DNA of 21,186 nucleotides from Alteromonas naphthalenivorans (GTDB taxonomy: Bacteria > Babelota > Babeliae > Babelales > CAIQNR01), in the NCBI GenBank assembly GCA_047631715.1, contig JBLICC010000013.1, positions 1 to 21,186 on the forward strand. Direction: 5' to 3'. The notes beneath the pieces were generated by a model. That model was not told the origin of the DNA. It ran no database searches and worked only from the letters and a program-made list of their open reading frames with translations. Both the position numbers and the translations under genes were made by a program. Shown piece after piece: positions 3,971 through 18,230 of the stretch; position 1 is the stretch's first letter, and the number at the start of each line of letters is the position of its first letter.

Positions 3971-4505
3971 CTATTTTAAAACATTACTTTTAGCAACTAC
4001 TTTTTGTTCTGGCATCATTTTTTTTATGGTGCACAATCAATGGCTTATTATTCATATCAACACAGGAAAATCAGCTCTTGGTAATAAAACGCTAGCTATA
4101 GAAAAGAAATCACTTCGTCTTCATTTTTGGCATGAAGACTCATGGCATCACGAAGATACAGAAATATTATGGTCGCAAGATAATGCAAAAAACATTTTAT
4201 ATAGCACCAATCGCTGGCTTTCTCTTCTTGATGAAGAAGCAGTTCATTCAAAAAAAGTGACTCTGCAAAGCGTAACACTTTCTTCGTCTGGCACTATTGC
4301 TTATATATCATTCGATCGCTACCCCTTTGAGCCCGAATCTTCTACCTACGATAAGTATATGTTTATAGAGGGTTTACTCAAAACGCTCAGAGAGCAACCT
4401 ATGCCCATTACTCATCTTTATTTTTTGGTTCATCACAAGTTTTTGGATGATTATCATTTAGACTTTTCCCATCCTTGGCCTTTAAAAAGTTTTTTACAAG
4501 ACTAA
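3954..4505 (+). CDS. Membrane-anchored GerMN-like domain protein
   Basis: One N-terminal TM segment, then LQSVTL..GTIAYISF...E..FIEGLLKTL.....HLYFLV, resembling GerMN. GTG at 3954 follows AGAAAGG and is preferred over TTG 3924 or ATG 3930. Confidence 0.6.
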   Translation: MVFSHNYFKTLLLATTFCSGIIFFMVHNQWLIIHINTGKSALGNKTLAIEKKSLRLHFWHEDSWHHEDTEILWSQDNAKNILYSTNRWLSLLDEEAVHSKKVTLQSVTLSSSGTIAYISFDRYPFEPESSTYDKYMFIEGLLKTLREQPMPITHLYFLVHHKFLDDYHLDFSHPWPLKSFLQD

Positions 4506-4619
4506 ATACCGACCCATCAATATTTTCTCCTACAGGCATAATAACTCTCTATCTTTTATAAAAAAGGCATGCTAGTTTTTGTTATGAACTTTAACCTTTT
4601 TTCCTATAAGGAGAATGTC

Positions 4620-5144
4620 ATGAACAAGTCTATTCTTCTGCTGATCAGCCTCATAATCTGTACTGTTCAAGCAAAAGAAACCAACCCTACAAAACGATGG
4701 AACAAGCACTACGGCATTGCACAACTGACCTCATCCGACAAGAACGGTCTTGCAACCGGTCTGTATTATCTACTTAAACATAAAGGTAATACCAAGAAGA
4801 CGCCCTCTAGCGTCAAACAATTTTATTCTATTGCAGAAAACACCTGTCATTATTTATGTAAAAATGCTTATTTAAATGCGTTCGAAACTTCTGTAAAAGC
4901 TAGCTTAGATAAAAAACAAAAAGAAAAAATGTGGACAGAAACATTATTGCCTTACTATACAACCGTACTCAACATGCTCGAAGATGAAGATCAAACCATC
5001 TCATTTGGTGCTGATCGTGGTAAAAAATTACCAACAACAGTATTTGAACTTGATCGCGCTCTTCATCCACGGGTACAACAGAAAACAGTTATACAAGTAA
5101 ATAACTCAGGTTTTTCTGTACATTGTCAATTACAACAACTTTAG
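4620..5144 (+). CDS. Secreted hypothetical protein
   Basis: ATG at 4620 follows TAAGGAG, a better start than 4569. Signal peptide MNKSILLLISLIICTVQA. No recognisable domain. Confidence 0.75.
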   Translation: MNKSILLLISLIICTVQAKETNPTKRWNKHYGIAQLTSSDKNGLATGLYYLLKHKGNTKKTPSSVKQFYSIAENTCHYLCKNAYLNAFETSVKASLDKKQKEKMWTETLLPYYTTVLNMLEDEDQTISFGADRGKKLPTTVFELDRALHPRVQQKTVIQVNNSGFSVHCQLQQL

Positions 5145-5150
5145 AATTCA

Positions 5151-5182
5151 AAAAAAAAAGGCCTCGTAACTGAGGCCTTTTT
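5151..5182. terminator. Bidirectional intrinsic terminator
   Basis: AAAAAGGCCTC-gtaact-GAGGCCTTTTT hairpin flanked by A and T tracts, between convergent genes. Confidence 0.9.
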
Positions 5183-5204
5183 ACTTATATAAATTATTTT
5201 TATT

Positions 5205-5483
5205 TTATTTATTTGCAGCAGCTTTTTGTCTTTGTGCAAGAACAGCTAAAATTGCTGGATTCTCTTTAATTTGTTGCAGCACGCTTTCTTCATAACTCAA
5301 TGGCTCTGTAGATTGCGATGAATCTTTATCATCAAACAACTGTTCAACTTCATCTACACCTTCTGATATCACATTATCAACCACTGCTTCAATTTTTTCT
5401 ATATAATCTTGTTGCGGTTGTTCTGTCGCATGTATAAACGCTATCGCACTCAATAATATACTTACTACTATTTTTCTCTTCAT
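5205..5483 (-). CDS. Small acidic secreted protein, N-terminal paralog of the neighbouring RING protein
   Basis: AAGGAG RBS, signal MKRKIVVSILLSAIAFIHA, and EQPQQDY...EVEQL shared with 5510..6064. Confidence 0.75.
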   Translation of the reverse strand: MKRKIVVSILLSAIAFIHATEQPQQDYIEKIEAVVDNVISEGVDEVEQLFDDKDSSQSTEPLSYEESVLQQIKENPAILAVLAQRQKAAANK

Positions 5484-5509
5484 TCTAAACTCCTTAAAAA
5501 CATTTAACT

Positions 5510-6064
5510 CTATAAATCATCTCTACCGTCACGAAGAAATCGATTCTGTCTATCAAGTTCAAATGGCACTGGCATCATATCAGCACCTAAATATGAAGGT
5601 TCTGCTGGTTCAGTATCTCTTCTTCTTCTTCTTTCTCTTAATCTCTGTCTTACTCGTTGCTGAATGTTTCGGCCTACTCGCGCTACATATTGCAACATAT
5701 TTTCACCTTGTTGGCGCATATAACCTTCTGTAGTAACACCTGCATGATTAAAATTAGCTCTACATAACGGACAAGAATTTTTCTGTTGTATCCATGGTCT
5801 TAAACATTCATGATGAAAAGAATGTTCACATGGTGTTGTAGCTATTGCTTGCGGTGGTATCATACCTGCCAAACAAATTGGACAATTTGCATGCTCTTCT
5901 TCTGATCCATGAGCATTGCCATCTACCAACTGTTCAACTTCCCCTACCGCATGACCAACCATATCTTCTGCTTGCTCAACATAATCTTGTTCTGGTTGCT
6001 CTGCCGCATTAAGATTTAAACATCCAAATACAAACAATACACTTAAAAACAACTTATTCATCAT
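5510..6064 (-). CDS. Secreted RING-H2 (C3H2C3) finger protein, putative E3 ubiquitin ligase effector
   Basis: AAGGAGG RBS and signal peptide (..GCLNLNA). CPIC-x14-CEHSFHHEC-LRPW-x6-CPLCR is a complete RING-H2 with the conserved Trp and Pro, followed by an Arg-rich stretch. Confidence 0.88.
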   Translation of the reverse strand: MMNKLFLSVLFVFGCLNLNAAEQPEQDYVEQAEDMVGHAVGEVEQLVDGNAHGSEEEHANCPICLAGMIPPQAIATTPCEHSFHHECLRPWIQQKNSCPLCRANFNHAGVTTEGYMRQQGENMLQYVARVGRNIQQRVRQRLRERRRRRDTEPAEPSYLGADMMPVPFELDRQNRFLRDGRDDL

Positions 6065-6253
6065 TCTAACCTCCTTAAAAATATTAAAATCTCCAATATC
6101 CTATCAGGTTAGCACTTTCGAAGAGATTAAAGCAACAACAATACGCCTAGAAGGCTATATTAAAACAACTTAAGCTTAAACAAATCCAAATATTTTTTTG
6201 TCTTTATATGATATTCTACTACTCAATATAACTTAATTACTCGAAAGAATTTT

Positions 6254-6793
6254 ATGAAAAGACAACAATTATTAACGCTTTTAGAAAACTATCACCCTAC
6301 CGATAGCAAAGAACAAGAATACAAAAAGCGCACTCTAGAGTTTGTTAACCAACACGAAGACTGCTTTGAACGCACTCTAGAAATCGGACACATTACAGGT
6401 TCTGGATGGCTACTCAACAAAGAAGAAACCAAAGCTCTTTTACTTCATCACACAAAACTTGATAGATGGTTTCAACTCGGTGGGCATTGCGATGGCGATT
6501 CAGATGTTCTTGCTGTGACCACTAAAGAGTGCCAAGAAGAATCGGGCATTAATGGTATAGAACCACTGTCTCTTAAAATTTTTGATATCGATATTCATAC
6601 TATTCCAGCTCGCCTTCATGAACCAGAGCACGATCATTACGATATTAGATTTCTACTTAAAGTAACGAGTGACGAAAAATTGGTACAAAACAGAGAATCT
6701 AAAGAACTTAGATGGATCTCAAAAGACCCATCCGAACTTCCTACACAAGAGCGATCCGTAACACGCATGTTTGAAAAATGGCTACAACTATAA
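6254..6793 (+). CDS. Nudix hydrolase
   Basis: GHITGS, LLHHTKLDRWFQLGGHCDG...KECQEESGI Nudix box, DIDIH and HYDIRF. Confidence 0.9.
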   Translation: MKRQQLLTLLENYHPTDSKEQEYKKRTLEFVNQHEDCFERTLEIGHITGSGWLLNKEETKALLLHHTKLDRWFQLGGHCDGDSDVLAVTTKECQEESGINGIEPLSLKIFDIDIHTIPARLHEPEHDHYDIRFLLKVTSDEKLVQNRESKELRWISKDPSELPTQERSVTRMFEKWLQL

Positions 6794-6800
6794 AGTTTTA

Positions 6801-6824
6801 TAAGGTGTCTTTCGAGGCACCTTA
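6801..6824. terminator. Hairpin between convergent genes, probable terminator
   Basis: TAAGGTGTCT-ttcg-AGGCACCTTA forms a 10-bp stem with one G:U pair and a UUCG loop. U-tracts are weak. Confidence 0.65.
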
Positions 6825-6825
6825 A

Positions 6826-9800
6826 CTATACTTCGGGAAACTCTTCTCCGGGTAAATTTTGTTCATCATCTTCTGTTGATGCTTTTTCACCTGGCACTGG
6901 TCTACCTGAAGGATCGAGATATTGATGATTTTTAGATTCACCCATCATACGAATAACACGTACAGGGAATGCAATTTCTATATGATTATCGTGAAGATAC
7001 TTAACAATAGAAAGCCGTACATCACTGGCAATAATCCATTGCTGCAAAGTCATTTCTGAACTCACATAACCACGAACCATAAAAATATAACCTGATGGTC
7101 CAAATTCTTCTAAACGAATAATTGGTGGTGGTGTTTTAAGAACATTATTTACATTCATAACAGCTTGCATTAATACTTCTTTAGTTTTAACTGGATCTGC
7201 AGCATAACGAATGCCTACAATAATATCGGGGAACGTTATAAATCCACTGGTATAATCCCAGTTCATAATAACTTCTTGCATCAGTTTGCTATTAGGAACG
7301 ACCAAATGAAAGCTTCTTTTTCGGCGCAAAATAACAGCACGGGGAGTAATTTTTCTAACTACACCACTCACTTCATCACTAATTTTAATATAATCACCAA
7401 TTTTGAGCGGACGCTGAACTAAGAGTACAAAGTACGCAATAAAATCGTTAAACACTTCTCGCAATGCAAAACCCATACCAACAAGTAGTGGTAACATATA
7501 ATACATAACCAAGAAGCCAAAGCCCTCATGAACCAAGCCAATGGTAATAACCAAAATAACAACAAGATAATATAAAATAGTTGAAACAGCATTGTGCACA
7601 CCCGGATCAACAAGAAGAACGCTAAAGATACGATCCAAAATAAATCGATCAACCAAATGCCCTACCATAAATGCAAATGGTATAAATAAGAAGGTTCTAA
7701 TAAGATCGAATACACTTACACTGTGATATTTACCATCAAGAACACCTATAGCGTATCGTTTCTCCGAAAAGAAACTGCCTACAGAATTAAGAGGAATAGA
7801 ATTCCCCCAGAACCATGCTATACACCATATGCCAAACAGAGAAAAGAAAATAAATAAGAAAACGACGGTTAAACCATACAGTGTTTTAGAACTTTCGAAC
7901 CGTTGGTTAAGCGTTTCTCCATCAGAAGAAAAGAAAATGTATGATGATATTCTACGGCAAAAACCGTACGAAAGCATAAGTAATCGGCCAACCAAAAGCG
8001 TTCCAAACAATCCCCAGAAGAAGTAGGCAACCAAGTTGTCATAACCGCCAATGTGAGGATCACTCAAAATCATGACCGTAATAATAACAATTAAAAGCGT
8101 ATGGTAATACTGGTCAACCAAGCGCCAAAAAAATCCTCCTATATCTGATCGAGAAGGAATAACGCTTAGTAGATCTTCTTTTCTAATAAGTGATAATAAA
8201 AGAATTCTAACAATAATAGAATAGAGCGCTAATAGCACGCTTGGCAATTCTGACTTAGTATACGTTGCTAAAATAAAGGCTTCTCGGAAAAACAATATGC
8301 TAATCGAAGTGTATAAAAATATTGAACCAACAATACTTAAACGTGCAACAAAATGCTCTGGAAACAGTTCTGACTCATGATCTTTATTAAATTGAATAAT
8401 AAAATGAATAAATCGATTGGAAATATAAAGTAAATAAGGAATAGAAACAAGAAAGAAAACAACTGCAGGATAAATCTCTGTAACAGCACTCACCCCAATA
8501 GAGAAAAATAAAAAGAACCAAATATAAAGCGTTATAAGATGTTTTGAAATAAATTCAATACATAAAGCAAGAATACGACTAAAAACAAATGCGCCCCGAT
8601 ACTCGCTCCCAACATCAATAAAGAAACGACTTAGAGTAGGTAAATAACGTTGTAATAAAAAGAAAAATAAGAAAATAAGAAAGAGCTTCCACAAAAGAAT
8701 AATGAGCGATAGAGGGTTTTGTAATAACATTAAAAGCTTACGACTCATAATGTATAATTTAAAACCAGAAAGATACGAAGCTCCTAATGTGCGCACATCT
8801 ACAAAAAAGCTACTCACATCAGGAATAATATTACCGAGTCCTTCTTTTGAAATTGCTCCACCAGAACGATGCCACAAACTCACTCGCTGTAACTCAGCGA
8901 CCATACTTTTAACTTCTTTAATCTCTCCACCCACAGAAACCAATATTTTTGAATAGGCTTCAATTAGTCTTCCTGTATACTCTACCTGTTTTGAAACAAT
9001 GGTTTGAGCACGAGAAAGATAGAGATCGCTCTTATTAAACTTTGATTCTTCGCCTTTAAAGAGCTGATTTCGTTTTTGTTTTAAAGTTGCTTGGTGATTT
9101 TTAACATTAGTTAAAGCTTTATTTTGTAAGCTTAATCGATTAGTTGCAGACACACGCTTATCTTCATAAATAGAGCGCTCCCGTAACATTTCTGCAACAG
9201 ATGCTTGATAACCCGAAATCTCTGTGCTCAATTGATCACTTGATTTAAAATGCTGATGCTTAATTTTGTACCAAGACTCAACAATGCGTAATGCGTTTTC
9301 GTGCTCCTGAAATAAAACTTTTTCTAATACATTTTGTGATTTATTAAAATCAATTTTAACTTCTATAAGACGAACTTCATCATTCTTAAGCCCTCGTTCG
9401 GCAAGAGCAAGAAAGCTGGAGGCGCTAGAAGGAACAGTAATCCATTCGTTTAAATTGGTAATTCCATATTCTTTATCGGGATATTTTACTTCTAACTCAA
9501 GTAGCTCTTTTTTAAGTTTTTCTTCTGCTGTAGAAAGTTTTTCTATTTCGTGCAAGTATTTATCGGTCTTATTAAGATACTCTCGTTTTTGTACTTTAAT
9601 TTTATCCGTAATAACCGCAATATCTTTTTTATCTACCCGTAACGACATACGAACAATAAAATCTTTTTGTGCCCGAGAAGCATTCAAATTCTTTTGCTCT
9701 ACGCTTTCTTTTTCTTCCACTAGTGCTAGTTTTGCACTTTTTTCTTTAACCTGTATATCGGCAAGCTCTTTTTGATATTGAGCCATTTTAACTTCAAAAT

Positions 9801-10473
9801 CGAGTAAGGAACTTTTTTCTCGTGCATACTGATCAGAAGGCAATACCTCGTTTCCAAACTCACCTTGCTCTTTAAGTTTTTCTTTATAAGCTTTTTCGGT
9901 TGTCTCAAGTTGACGCTTGGCATTATCTAAATCAAGATTAACCTCGCTTCTCTCTCCATCGATATGAGAGATTTTGTCTTCTTGATTGGCAATTTTTCTA
10001 TTTAAAGTTTGTAACTCTTCAAAAGTATAGAGAGCTTTTTTCTCGTCATGCTCTACATTTTTATCTTCTTCTAAATTAGTTAAAAGAGTAATGCGAGACT
10101 TTAAATTACCTATCCATGCTTTTTTACTAGATCGAATACTAGCTAGTATTTGAGCTGTACTTTTAAGAGTAAAAAGCTGTTTATTAAAATAGGTATCATC
10201 CGTAGCAACACTTAATTGCTCATCAACATGTTTTATCTTTTTCCGAATGCTATCTATCTTTTGCTGTATATCATCTTCAAATGTTTTAGACTCAATCTCA
10301 ACAGAATCAACTTCTTTTCTTAATTGCTTTAACTCTCTTTCAGTTTTATCTTCTCCCGTAATAAGATCGAGAGAACCTTCTTTTTTTAATCCAAAAGAAC
10401 TGAGTAAATCCGCTCTAAGAGAAGTTCCAATTAATAATAATAAAGAAAGAGATATGACTTTTTTTACATTCAT
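6826..10473 (-). CDS. Large MscS-family mechanosensitive channel (MscK/MscM-like)
   Basis: Signal peptide, about 500 aa coiled-coil-like region, many TM helices, and a C-terminal MscS core (GMGFALRE.FNDF...QRPLKIGDYI...G.VRKI..R...VVPNS). Confidence 0.9.
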   Translation of the reverse strand: MNVKKVISLSLLLLIGTSLRADLLSSFGLKKEGSLDLITGEDKTERELKQLRKEVDSVEIESKTFEDDIQQKIDSIRKKIKHVDEQLSVATDDTYFNKQLFTLKSTAQILASIRSSKKAWIGNLKSRITLLTNLEEDKNVEHDEKKALYTFEELQTLNRKIANQEDKISHIDGERSEVNLDLDNAKRQLETTEKAYKEKLKEQGEFGNEVLPSDQYAREKSSLLDFEVKMAQYQKELADIQVKEKSAKLALVEEKESVEQKNLNASRAQKDFIVRMSLRVDKKDIAVITDKIKVQKREYLNKTDKYLHEIEKLSTAEEKLKKELLELEVKYPDKEYGITNLNEWITVPSSASSFLALAERGLKNDEVRLIEVKIDFNKSQNVLEKVLFQEHENALRIVESWYKIKHQHFKSSDQLSTEISGYQASVAEMLRERSIYEDKRVSATNRLSLQNKALTNVKNHQATLKQKRNQLFKGEESKFNKSDLYLSRAQTIVSKQVEYTGRLIEAYSKILVSVGGEIKEVKSMVAELQRVSLWHRSGGAISKEGLGNIIPDVSSFFVDVRTLGASYLSGFKLYIMSRKLLMLLQNPLSLIILLWKLFLIFLFFFLLQRYLPTLSRFFIDVGSEYRGAFVFSRILALCIEFISKHLITLYIWFFLFFSIGVSAVTEIYPAVVFFLVSIPYLLYISNRFIHFIIQFNKDHESELFPEHFVARLSIVGSIFLYTSISILFFREAFILATYTKSELPSVLLALYSIIVRILLLSLIRKEDLLSVIPSRSDIGGFFWRLVDQYYHTLLIVIITVMILSDPHIGGYDNLVAYFFWGLFGTLLVGRLLMLSYGFCRRISSYIFFSSDGETLNQRFESSKTLYGLTVVFLFIFFSLFGIWCIAWFWGNSIPLNSVGSFFSEKRYAIGVLDGKYHSVSVFDLIRTFLFIPFAFMVGHLVDRFILDRIFSVLLVDPGVHNAVSTILYYLVVILVITIGLVHEGFGFLVMYYMLPLLVGMGFALREVFNDFIAYFVLLVQRPLKIGDYIKISDEVSGVVRKITPRAVILRRKRSFHLVVPNSKLMQEVIMNWDYTSGFITFPDIIVGIRYAADPVKTKEVLMQAVMNVNNVLKTPPPIIRLEEFGPSGYIFMVRGYVSSEMTLQQWIIASDVRLSIVKYLHDNHIEIAFPVRVIRMMGESKNHQYLDPSGRPVPGEKASTEDDEQNLPGEEFPEV

Positions 10474-16218: not shown

Positions 16219-16809
16219 ATGAAAAATACGTTTTTATTTTTACTACTTATGCTGGTCTTTAAAATACAAAGCTCCAATATAGATCAAATACCCGATTATT
16301 GGTCTAATCACATTCCAATAGATTACTCACAACACTATTTTTGTAATCCTAATACTCTCTATCAAAACAACACAGATCTTGAATTATTAGAAAAACATAT
16401 GCAACAAAAAAGAAGATTAGATTTTGAACAAGAACAAAAAAAAACAACTATTACTCCCTCTCCAATTCAAACAGAAGCCACCTCTCCTCATACTCATCAA
16501 ATACAAACCCAAACGGTATTATCAAATATTCCTCAACTAGCAACCATTATGAAAAAAATTAGGGCACAAGGCATAGAAAAAATGGTATGTCCTTTTTCTG
16601 ACTGTAAAAAACATTGCAAAACAGGAAAAAACTTATTTACACATTTAGAAACAAATCACTCAGTTAATTTTAAAGAAGAAAGCCAACTGAGTAATATTTC
16701 TAAAAAAATATATATATGCTTAAAATGCTCTTGGGCAACTCCACATAGAAATACCTTATCTACTCATAACACAAAACATTTTCTCGAAATCCCTAAAAAA
16801 AATCAATAA
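16219..16809 (+). CDS. Secreted C2H2 zinc-finger protein (2 fingers)
   Basis: Signal peptide, C-x4-C-x12-H-x4-H (CPFSDC...HLETNH) and C-x2-C-x12-H-x3-H (CLKC...HNTKH). Confidence 0.82.
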   Translation: MKNTFLFLLLMLVFKIQSSNIDQIPDYWSNHIPIDYSQHYFCNPNTLYQNNTDLELLEKHMQQKRRLDFEQEQKKTTITPSPIQTEATSPHTHQIQTQTVLSNIPQLATIMKKIRAQGIEKMVCPFSDCKKHCKTGKNLFTHLETNHSVNFKEESQLSNISKKIYICLKCSWATPHRNTLSTHNTKHFLEIPKKNQ

Positions 16810-16827
16810 CTTTAATGCAAAGAAATC

Positions 16828-17634
16828 ATGAAAAAACAATATTTCATACTACTAATCACCCTCCTGCTTACTACTTCTAATAAAGCTTCAAATTATACCG
16901 ATCCAGATGTATTTACGTTTTTTAATAAAATAGATACTGAACTTACAGAAAAAAATGAACAGATTTGCGTATTAGCCTTAGCTGACTGGAAAGCACAAGA
17001 AGAATTTTCTAAGAAAGCAGCACAACCAAAAGATCTTTCACTCATAGCATTAGCAGATATTTGCCCCTGGAGCCCCTCTAGATTAGTAAAGAAAATTTTA
17101 AACCATGATAGAACACATAGCCAATGCGTAGAACTTGATGGACAAGAAATAATACCTAAAGCTTTACGCCGACCTCATCCTGATCGTAATATACATTTTC
17201 TTGGATGGGATACATTTCCACCTTCACAATCTCAATTCCTAGAAAATCCTGCAACTTCACCTACAATCAATAACAATACCTTTAAAATAGCTAAGGCAAC
17301 TAAAAAAAGAATCCATCTTAAGCAAAATGCTGGTTTATATTACTGTCAAGAAGAACTTAGAATCTGTAACTACAAAACATCGATCTATAAAAATCTTGCA
17401 GCACACTGCACTGAAGTACATAAATCAAAAAAAATGCCCAACCCCATAAAATGCTTAAAATGCTGTCGGCGCGTTAGTTATTTTTCTCTTCATCCAGACC
17501 AATGTTTAGCAATTGACCCAACGAGCAGAGAGCGAGACAGAAAGGATAATAACCATAAAAAAGAAAAAATAAAAATAGGAAACCTTGCACACGTAGCCGT
17601 ACTAGCAACACTCACACAGAAAGAAACTTTATGA
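16828..17634 (+). CDS. Secreted zinc-finger protein (C2H2-like plus C2HC-like)
   Basis: Signal peptide (..TSNKA), C-x6-C-x12-H-x4-H (CQEELRIC...HCTEVH), C-x2-C-x9-H-x3-C, and a basic tail. Confidence 0.72.
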   Translation: MKKQYFILLITLLLTTSNKASNYTDPDVFTFFNKIDTELTEKNEQICVLALADWKAQEEFSKKAAQPKDLSLIALADICPWSPSRLVKKILNHDRTHSQCVELDGQEIIPKALRRPHPDRNIHFLGWDTFPPSQSQFLENPATSPTINNNTFKIAKATKKRIHLKQNAGLYYCQEELRICNYKTSIYKNLAAHCTEVHKSKKMPNPIKCLKCCRRVSYFSLHPDQCLAIDPTSRERDRKDNNHKKEKIKIGNLAHVAVLATLTQKETL

Positions 17635-18230
17635 TTAAAAAAAATATACTCACATTAATATTTATTATTTTATTTCCAGCTACTGCCACAAATATACATG
17701 ATAGAGATATACATGCTCTCATGCAAAATACAGATTTTATGCAAGAAGTTTTAACATCACCCGAAACACTAACTCCATTAATAGACCTCACTATCTCAAC
17801 ACCAAATCCAAAGTTAAAGCCTCAACCAAAAATGAGAGGTAAAGATATGGAGTTGCTCAACGCTAAACTTACTATTAAAAAAAATTGCATCGCTAAAGCT
17901 ACTTCCAGAGGGAAAGATATAAAACTTCTAAAAGCTAAAATGAGTAAATCTCGAAATCATATGTGTAAACTTTGCAACGCTTGCTACAAAAGTAGCAGTG
18001 CATTAAATTTTCATAGACAAAAAAAACATGGAAAACCATGGCCTTGCCTTGATTGCAAGAATATATACCCTGCATCCTCATCTTTGCTTTTACATCTTAA
18101 AAATGTTCATCCAGAACAAAGATCAAACGATCGATTACAATGCGAATATGGATGCATTAGACAGATTCATTGGCCTGCCGTTATGGCGCACCACAAACTT
18201 GTATGCAAAAAAGATCCAAATTTAAAGTAA
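17631..18230 (+). CDS. Secreted zinc-finger protein (2 C2H2 plus 1 C2HC, TRAF-like spacing)
   Basis: Signal peptide, CKLC-x12-H-x4-H, CLDC-x12-H-x4-H and CEYGC-x11-H-x4-C. ATGA overlap with the upstream gene. Confidence 0.85.
   Translation: MIKKNILTLIFIILFPATATNIHDRDIHALMQNTDFMQEVLTSPETLTPLIDLTISTPNPKLKPQPKMRGKDMELLNAKLTIKKNCIAKATSRGKDIKLLKAKMSKSRNHMCKLCNACYKSSSALNFHRQKKHGKPWPCLDCKNIYPASSSLLLHLKNVHPEQRSNDRLQCEYGCIRQIHWPAVMAHHKLVCKKDPNLK

Follow-up and report, generated by a model that had tools for sequence, protein, structure and literature searches.

Why a bacterial genome should encode a small secreted protein with a RING-H2 domain, and where such a protein would act, are the questions raised by one open reading frame in the 21,186-nucleotide stretch of DNA analyzed here (the window). 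The original prediction was that of a horizontally acquired E3 effector, carrying a signal peptide and an Arg-rich, NLS-like tail, that may act in the host nucleus. On the sequence evidence presented below, we favor the reading that the protein, P0001, is probably an exported RING-H2 E3 ubiquitin ligase that would use the E1, E2, and ubiquitin of a protist host.

Gene organization and genome context

P0001 (184 aa) is encoded on the minus strand at 5510..6064, as are all features of this locus described here. From the N-terminus, it comprises a predicted Sec signal peptide (residues 1-20; 6005..6064), an acidic, helical module (residues 21-60; 5885..6004) that three relatives also have, the RING-H2 domain (C61-R102; 5759..5884), a linker, a long Arg-rich helix, and a disordered tail. 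Charge is strongly segregated along the chain, with a net -12 in residues 21-60, a net +7 in the basic segment 133-150, and an acidic tail. The Shine-Dalgarno sequence AAGGAGG (6070..6076) lies inside a leader that is matched nearly letter for letter both in the downstream gene and in a paralogue on another contig, C53, of the same genome. The downstream gene (5205..5483) encodes a 92-aa paralogue that shares the signal peptide, acidic module, and leader of P0001 and lacks a RING; the two genes are separated by 26 nt and are likely co-transcribed. A terminator-like hairpin followed by a T run (5155..5182), a consensus match of which 0.7 would be expected by chance in the region, would close this two-gene unit. 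The flanking genes encode, by Pfam assignment, a Nudix hydrolase, an MscS-domain protein, and an amidase. The MscS-domain protein (1215 aa; 6826-10473, minus strand) itself starts with a signal-like sequence, and a long N-terminal region precedes its membrane part.

The genome, G000 (845 kb in 58 contigs, about 35% GC), is of the Babeliales (Babelota/TM6) type, an endoparasite-type bacterium. Among 80 loci listed, the best near-full-length match to its LeuRS came from a Candidatus Babeliales genome (59%), and it carries a tandem cluster of ATP/ADP translocase genes. Such translocases, together with secretins, have been reported for TM6 genomes (PMC4776705), and the cultured members of the phylum are described as obligate intracellular bacteria of protists (PMC6561590). 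As G000 is 90% complete, the gene absences given below are soft.

A chimeric or contaminant assembly was one outcome that the original prediction had named as its own refutation, and, as far as contigs show, it is refuted by their even, unbranched coverage without differences. A single unbranched contig of run X1, which may itself be the source sample, spans 4332-9000 with zero differences at an even depth of 9.9, and a second sample, X2, covers 5956-6235 (the signal peptide and upstream DNA), again with zero differences; both are labeled as ice metagenomes. The contig that bears the gene also carries RecD2, UvrB, and LeuRS, and the gene for the Nudix neighbor, found in 15 of 31 genomes including G000 and 56-79% identical in most of the 14 relatives, ties it to this lineage. 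Synteny did not extend beyond that gene, whose flanks differed in all 10 relatives read; in this comparison, LeuRS alone matched a named Babeliales locus. Two observations could be taken to favor eukaryotic or giant-virus DNA: the RING of P0001 resembles eukaryote-type RINGs (up to 56% across 49 columns) more than it does any RING compared from Babeliales, and its look-alikes in the Atlas are mostly giant-virus clusters, all below the 0.9 bar. Against these stand not only the contigs but also a bacterial leader common to two paralogues, native codon use (the codon adaptation index lies at the 96th percentile of 752 genes, with an ordinary GC3), and six further signal-bearing RING genes on four other contigs, so that we give contamination almost no credence. 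The gene is native and not a chimera.

The RING-H2 domain and its relatives

All eight ligands of a RING-H2 (C3H2C3) domain are present in P0001, as C61-x2-C64-x14-C79-x-H81-x2-H84-x2-C87-x10-C98-x2-C101, the codon for C61 beginning at nt 5884 and that for C101 finishing at nt 5762; spacing and coordinates are the ones originally predicted. Pfam zf-RING_2 (PF13639) matched with an E value of 4.3e-14 and 52.9 bits (cut-off 27.3), and the loose RING pattern arose in none of 100,000 shuffles of P0001. The closest solved sequences are those of RNF4, RNF126, AMFR, ZNRF3, and RNF38. The predicted E2-contacting Ile, Trp, and Pro and the linchpin Arg were likewise found, as I63, W91, P99, and R102. 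The helix Trp and the loop-2 Pro of RING domains are E2 contacts, and the linchpin Arg, which we take to sit after the last Cys, was matched to that of RNF38 by alignment. The loop-1 hydrophobic contact and the role of the linchpin Arg are described elsewhere (PMC12591485 and PMC12326332, respectively).

AlphaFold, run on the mature chain with a 74-row alignment, predicts a cross-brace RING fold (pLDDT about 90), followed by an alpha-helix of 40 residues (112-151; 5612..5731) at a pLDDT of 83-93 over most of its length, and a low-confidence tail. The model superimposes on RNF165 in the UbcH5b~Ub complex with an rmsd of 0.5-0.6 A over 46-47 residues. This overlay confirms the fold class and nothing further, because any RING gives such a result; moreover, it was to be expected, since the alignment contained eukaryote-type RINGs and the predictor was trained on such structures. 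P0001 passes every sequence test for a monomeric eukaryotic RING-H2 domain, and we regard it as a putative E3.

RING-H2 domains had been held to be rare in bacteria. That holds for the 14 control prokaryote genomes, none of which had a match, but not for this phylum: 43 of 61 related genomes contained matches, and in a sample of 201 genomes from across the phylum 105 did, in 18 of 20 families, with up to 17 matches per genome and 349 in total. G000 itself has seven RING genes, on five contigs, all with a signal-like start. From 36 loci and 60 regions around the stronger matches in G000 and the 61 related genomes (most weak ones being omitted), we collected 112 distinct RING open reading frames in 35 genomes. 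Among the 110 whose 5' end is closed, a signal-like start was called in 100, as compared with 345 of 752 G000 genes and with 24 of 648 internal control windows, the latter being the false-call rate of the heuristic. By a strict ligand pattern, which misparses a few rows and therefore gives approximate counts, 77 of the 112 have all eight ligands (59 H2, 18 HC), and all four E2-face residues occur in 21. Ankyrin repeats accompany the RING in 22/112 and leucine-rich repeats (LRR) in 6/112, which would correspond, by analogy, to the usual E3 layout of a RING plus a binding domain. In one set of 31 Babeliales genomes, RING domains occur in 21, U-boxes in 2, and an F-box-like domain in 1. Only one U-box was over the cut-off in these genomes, a clear example (E 6e-14) in an 892-aa frame of a relative (G013:C80:2462-2668, minus strand).

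Several arrangements within the family were noted in their own right. Five signal-bearing proteins (P0006, P0067, P0027, P0039, and P0084) have two to four tandem RING domains. In G000, three tandem signal-bearing RING genes occupy C53:2343-3889 (L002). The third has its leader and N-terminal module in common with P0001, and its first dyad is C-x-C, a form that G013 and G030 also contain. At G000:C26:8523-12145, six or more signal-bearing genes lie in a row, their N-termini being nearly identical (M-N-K-K-L-L...); in one of the encoded proteins, a RING precedes a repeat helix rich in Arg and poor in Lys.

The phylum-wide occurrence of RING genes, together with a ribosome-binding site and codon use that are both native, makes P0001 a member of an expanded lineage repertoire rather than an isolated recent transfer. 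Of the predicted horizontal acquisition, then, a eukaryotic or giant-virus origin remains a reasonable ultimate source of the domain, judging from its distribution, but an isolated recent transfer does not stand and no donor was found. An exhaustive search with P0001 returned 19,550 matches at E 0.001, and with so many RING matches in the library the best eukaryote-type match names no donor. The RING phylogeny that had been proposed as a check (241 domains, 49 columns) is too short to name one either, or to decide on a single origin; in this tree, whose comparison set was picked by likeness to P0001, Babeliales domains are scattered, with 40 label changes vs. 76 expected when labels are shuffled. 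A scan of viral contigs with the RING gave four 8-residue matches alone, which were treated as chance.

Beyond the RING, relatives are few. A word-index search for orthologues of P0001 returned only itself among 53 candidates; among the 150 matches listed from the exhaustive search, P0100 alone shares the N-terminal module; and a profile of the acidic-module family added nothing outside that family. Just three relatives have both the signal peptide and the acidic module. These are the downstream gene, the paralogue on C53, whose RING has a shortened first dyad, and P0100/P0154 of other assemblies, in which the same signal, module, and RING are followed by an LRR (36% identity in the alignment). 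Because these relatives share their front and differ behind it, we take the front cassette as stable and the C-terminal arm as exchanged, that of P0001 being the Arg-rich helix.

Such a pattern might also be left by decay: in a family whose genes arise and disappear rapidly, this one would be a degenerating signal-RING-LRR copy whose binding domain is gone. A full-length orthologue was found neither in the 30 relatives nor in large protein collections, the downstream paralogue lacks a RING, and the Nudix gene is flanked differently in the 10 relatives read. We consider decay quite improbable, given that the ligands and the four E2-face residues are all intact, that the ribosome-binding site is strong and codon adaptation high, and that the loss of lysine looks selected. 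It is still less credible that the RING serves a bacterial ubiquitin-like system complete in itself. Operons of this kind with RING E3s do exist in archaea and some bacteria (PMC5654768), but the locus encodes no Ubl, E1, or E2 among the flanking genes, and the signal peptide would take P0001 out of the cytoplasm. Further, no E2 was found in 61 genomes by a search that had no positive control, and G000 yielded neither ubiquitin nor an E1-like ThiF over threshold; the RINGs are thus left without a partner found at home, as would suit the exported ligase that we favor.

Export, lysine content, and the Arg-rich helix

The predicted signal peptide was recovered both by a rule-based heuristic and by alignment to paralogues. 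The heuristic recognized a basic n-region, a hydrophobic h-region, and small residues at -3/-1, and placed its first cleavage site after residue 15; the alignment, in which relatives keep L-N-A or I-H-A preceding the mature start, favors cleavage after L-N-A20, which is the likely site. Signal-like starts are present in 345 of 752 genes (46%) in G000, close to the 44% reported for Chromulinavorax (PMC6561590), and a signal peptide in this organism therefore indicates export to the envelope, not delivery to the host cytosol.

That being so, P0001 might go no further than the envelope or the surface, possibly as a lipoprotein attached through the weak lipobox-like V-F-G-C15, and serve a role at the interface or in the envelope. 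Cys15 does come after a short hydrophobic stretch, and neither the T3SS marker family FlhA/SctV (matched in 5/14 controls) nor the T4SS marker family VirB4 (1/14 controls) had a match in G000. We nonetheless judge confinement to the envelope unlikely: Cys15 is absent from the three aligned relatives, which retain the alternative cleavage motif, two secretins encoded in G000 provide an exit, and in a periplasm lacking E2 there is no partner for a RING whose E2 face is complete. A surface form facing the host cytosol, for its part, would remain an E3.

For an exported ligase, the chemistry of the route matters as well. A Cys-rich zinc finger passing through Sec would ordinarily face disulfide formation in the periplasm. 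DsbB was found in none of 31 genomes (G000 and 30 relatives; 6/14 controls), and G000 has no DsbA-type Thioredoxin_4 protein (9/14 controls). VKOR occurs in 4/31 genomes, none of them among the 16 of G000's own family; two of the VKOR-bearing relatives (G025 and G029) also have RING matches. These absences, in incomplete genomes, make a non-oxidizing envelope plausible for this bacterial family, which may thus form no disulfides there.

The composition of the mature chain is unusual. Its 164 residues include 18 Arg and a single Lys, K95, which lies in the RING (nt 5780-5782). From the genome average, 12.9 Lys would be expected (binomial P 2e-5, noticed post hoc and equivalent to about 0.016 over 752 genes). 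Among these genes, P0001 ranks last in K/(K+R) and last but one in Lys fraction, and none of the 112 RING proteins has a lower Lys fraction. The lowest Lys fraction in the genome (about 0.6%) belongs to another signal-bearing protein, of 353 aa (G000:C1:27996-29123, minus strand). Szulc et al. (2023, PMC10665810) define a lysine desert as a stretch without Lys that makes up at least 50% of the chain or is 150 aa or longer; by this measure mature P0001 has one (89/164, 54%), whereas the precursor falls just under the bar (90/184, 49%). Such deserts are described for RING E3s and bacterial toxins, where they likely guard against ubiquitination (PMC10665810). The single Lys of P0001 would fit avoidance of self-ubiquitination and, with it, selection in a ubiquitin-containing compartment; selection against Lys would also explain why the basic tract is all Arg. 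We considered, and set aside, lysine depletion as a property of the whole family, which is barely depleted: its median is 6.7% vs. 7.6% in 176 neighbors (p 0.04), 13/112 RING proteins vs. 8/176 neighbors fall under 3% (p 0.035), the rows in both comparisons being non-independent, and outside the RING the family has 6.7% Lys.

What the C-terminal half of P0001 does bears on the kind of ligase it would be. Residues 103-184 have no Pfam family or usable Atlas match, so no substrate-binding domain was recognized there, and an LRR occupies the same place in the closest relative. One might accordingly suppose that P0001 reaches the host and binds E2~Ub only as a decoy or a builder of free chains, draining or sequestering charged E2, and a single Lys is compatible with this. 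Weighing against it, the confidently predicted 40-residue helix could bind a substrate, and most relatives carry long extra regions, often with ankyrin repeats or LRR; a decoy function is, in our view, a minor possibility. On the model, the helix is a candidate targeting or substrate-binding arm of the ligase.

The Arg-rich tract that had been called an NLS-like tail is real, being RVRQRLRERRRRR (residues 137-149; 5618..5656), with 9 Arg in 13 residues and no Lys. It is not a tail, since 35 residues follow it; it forms the C-terminal end of the predicted helix. Nor does the term NLS-like apply in its classical sense. The consensus bound by importin-alpha has a K-(K/R)-x-(K/R) core or is bipartite, and neither pattern occurs in mature P0001, whose tract lacks Lys and sits in a charged helix. 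Seven or more basic residues in 10 are found in just 13 of the 752 G000 proteins. Across the RING family, this density is reached by 8/112 proteins vs. 1.2 expected from shuffles, and runs of four basic residues by 19/112 vs. 7 expected; 13 of 22 such runs lie in acidic surroundings, as is typical of charged helices, and the classical NLS pattern is not enriched (36/112 vs. 131/407). The tract may be an Arg-only import signal; binding to RNA, to acidic lipids, or to an acidic protein surface are equal candidates.

Two lines of evidence are in favor of nuclear traffic in this organism: (i) all five C2H2-pattern proteins of G000 have signal-like starts (5/345 vs. 0/407), and (ii) the host nucleus degrades during Chromulinavorax infection (PMC6561590). 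Targeting of P0001 to the nucleus or nucleolus by its Arg tract is nonetheless no better than tentative, and nuclear action, which presupposes that P0001 is an exported ligase recruiting a host E2, is plausible at most. In the window itself, three adjacent signal-bearing open reading frames (16219-18230, plus strand) encode C-terminal Cys/His motifs, two of them matching the C2H2 pattern twice each; signal-bearing proteins of this pattern are candidate exported nucleic-acid-binding effectors. Elsewhere in G000, a signal-bearing RING-H2 protein (C28:5358-6179, L003) has a Lys-rich tract, VKKRKRE, that fits a classical NLS better than does P0001, and its RING has a 59%-identical counterpart in a genome of the same genus, G001.

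Proposed mode of action and known systems

We propose that P0001 would be exported by Sec and then leave the cell through a secretin (type II-like) channel or in outer-membrane vesicles. Its cysteines would remain reduced on the way, since G000 yielded no gene for DsbB, VKOR, or a DsbA-type protein. In the host, the RING would bind a UBE2D-like E2~Ub, with R102 stabilizing the closed state, while the Arg-rich helix, in place of the closest relative's LRR, would address the ligase to an acidic target or compartment; the loss of Lys would protect the ligase from tagging itself for degradation. Against this scheme, neither lysine depletion nor the full E2 face is family-wide, only 21/112 proteins keeping the four residues by the strict pattern. 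A more sweeping version, which we regard as doubtful, would credit the Babeliales with more canonical RING E3s than any other bacteria (349 matches in 201 genomes), delivered by Sec and secretin through a non-oxidizing envelope without T3SS or T4SS; P0001 would then be a lysine-free, Arg-addressed nuclear ligase that, beside the exported C2H2 proteins, dismantles or reprograms the protist nucleus.

The system makes testable both the takeover of protists without a type III or IV system and the survival of a Cys-rich zinc finger in Sec export. The near-total loss of Lys in P0001, moreover, offers a clean test of whether a host ubiquitin system has shaped a protein of a cell that lacks one.

P0001 resembles the eukaryotic monomeric RING-H2 E3s RNF38, RNF165/Ark2C, RNF126, AMFR, and ZNRF3 in ligand spacing, E2-face residues, linchpin Arg, and predicted fold, and it resembles RNF6, RLIM, and RNF44 in that lysines are confined to the RING (PMC10665810). 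Unlike the eukaryotic proteins, it has a Shine-Dalgarno sequence, a Sec-type signal, and unrelated flanks, and it is orthologous to no single family. With the small RINGs of the Nucleocytoviricota, its top look-alikes by fold and features, it shares a stand-alone RING-H2 layout active in protist hosts; these viruses provide no sequence relative of P0001 beyond the RING.

Other intracellular bacteria, the Parachlamydiaceae and the lineages with U-box effectors, which deliver by T3SS or T4SS, resemble the Babeliales in having expanded, each in its own lineage, E3 modules of host type joined to repeat domains. Those lineages mainly expand F-box, BTB, or U-box proteins, whereas Babeliales expand RING. 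The Parachlamydiaceae are described as expanding F-box and BTB proteins, their RING/U-box-LRR subfamily, NEX1b, being small (PMC4209131), and the U-box effectors of bacteria include LubX, GobX, and NleG (PMC13720258).

Within the phylum, a RING finger protein of Babela massiliensis has been put forward as a potential E3 exploiting host ubiquitin, together with an F-box protein, secreted deubiquitinases, and signal-bearing ankyrin proteins (Pagnier et al. 2015, PMC4378268). The consulted part of that report gives the protein one clause and no signal peptide, residue analysis, or test; here, there are seven such genes in one genome, RING matches in 105 of 201 genomes, and modular fusions. Neither “ubiquitin” nor “RING” occurs in the main text of the TM6 comparative paper (PMC4776705), and our literature search, which covered open-access main texts, found no account of a phylum-wide, signal-bearing RING repertoire in Babelota. 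As the idea of a Babelota RING E3 is already in print, the gain lies in scale, route, and anatomy, not in a new principle.

The nearest characterized counterpart is SneRING (SNE_A12920) of Simkania negevensis, likewise a RING protein of an intracellular bacterium, one that infects amoebae, and an active, Zn-binding E3 with host UbcH5b and UBE2T (Horner et al. 2025, PMC12591485). Its ligands are atypical (His for Cys, and NxxC), it has Ser at the hydrophobic E2 contact, and it localizes to cytosol, ER, and mitochondria; the term “signal peptide” is absent from the main text of that paper. In P0001, by contrast, the RING-H2 ligands are canonical, the Ile/Trp/Pro/Arg set is present, and the signal is of the Sec type. 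A 2026 review, in which a term search for Babelota returned no mention, places SneRING, as the one characterized Zn-binding bacterial RING ligase, latest beside the U-box effectors (PMC13720258). Against that one characterized, atypical bacterial RING, the Babeliales present hundreds of canonical RINGs fused to varied binding domains.
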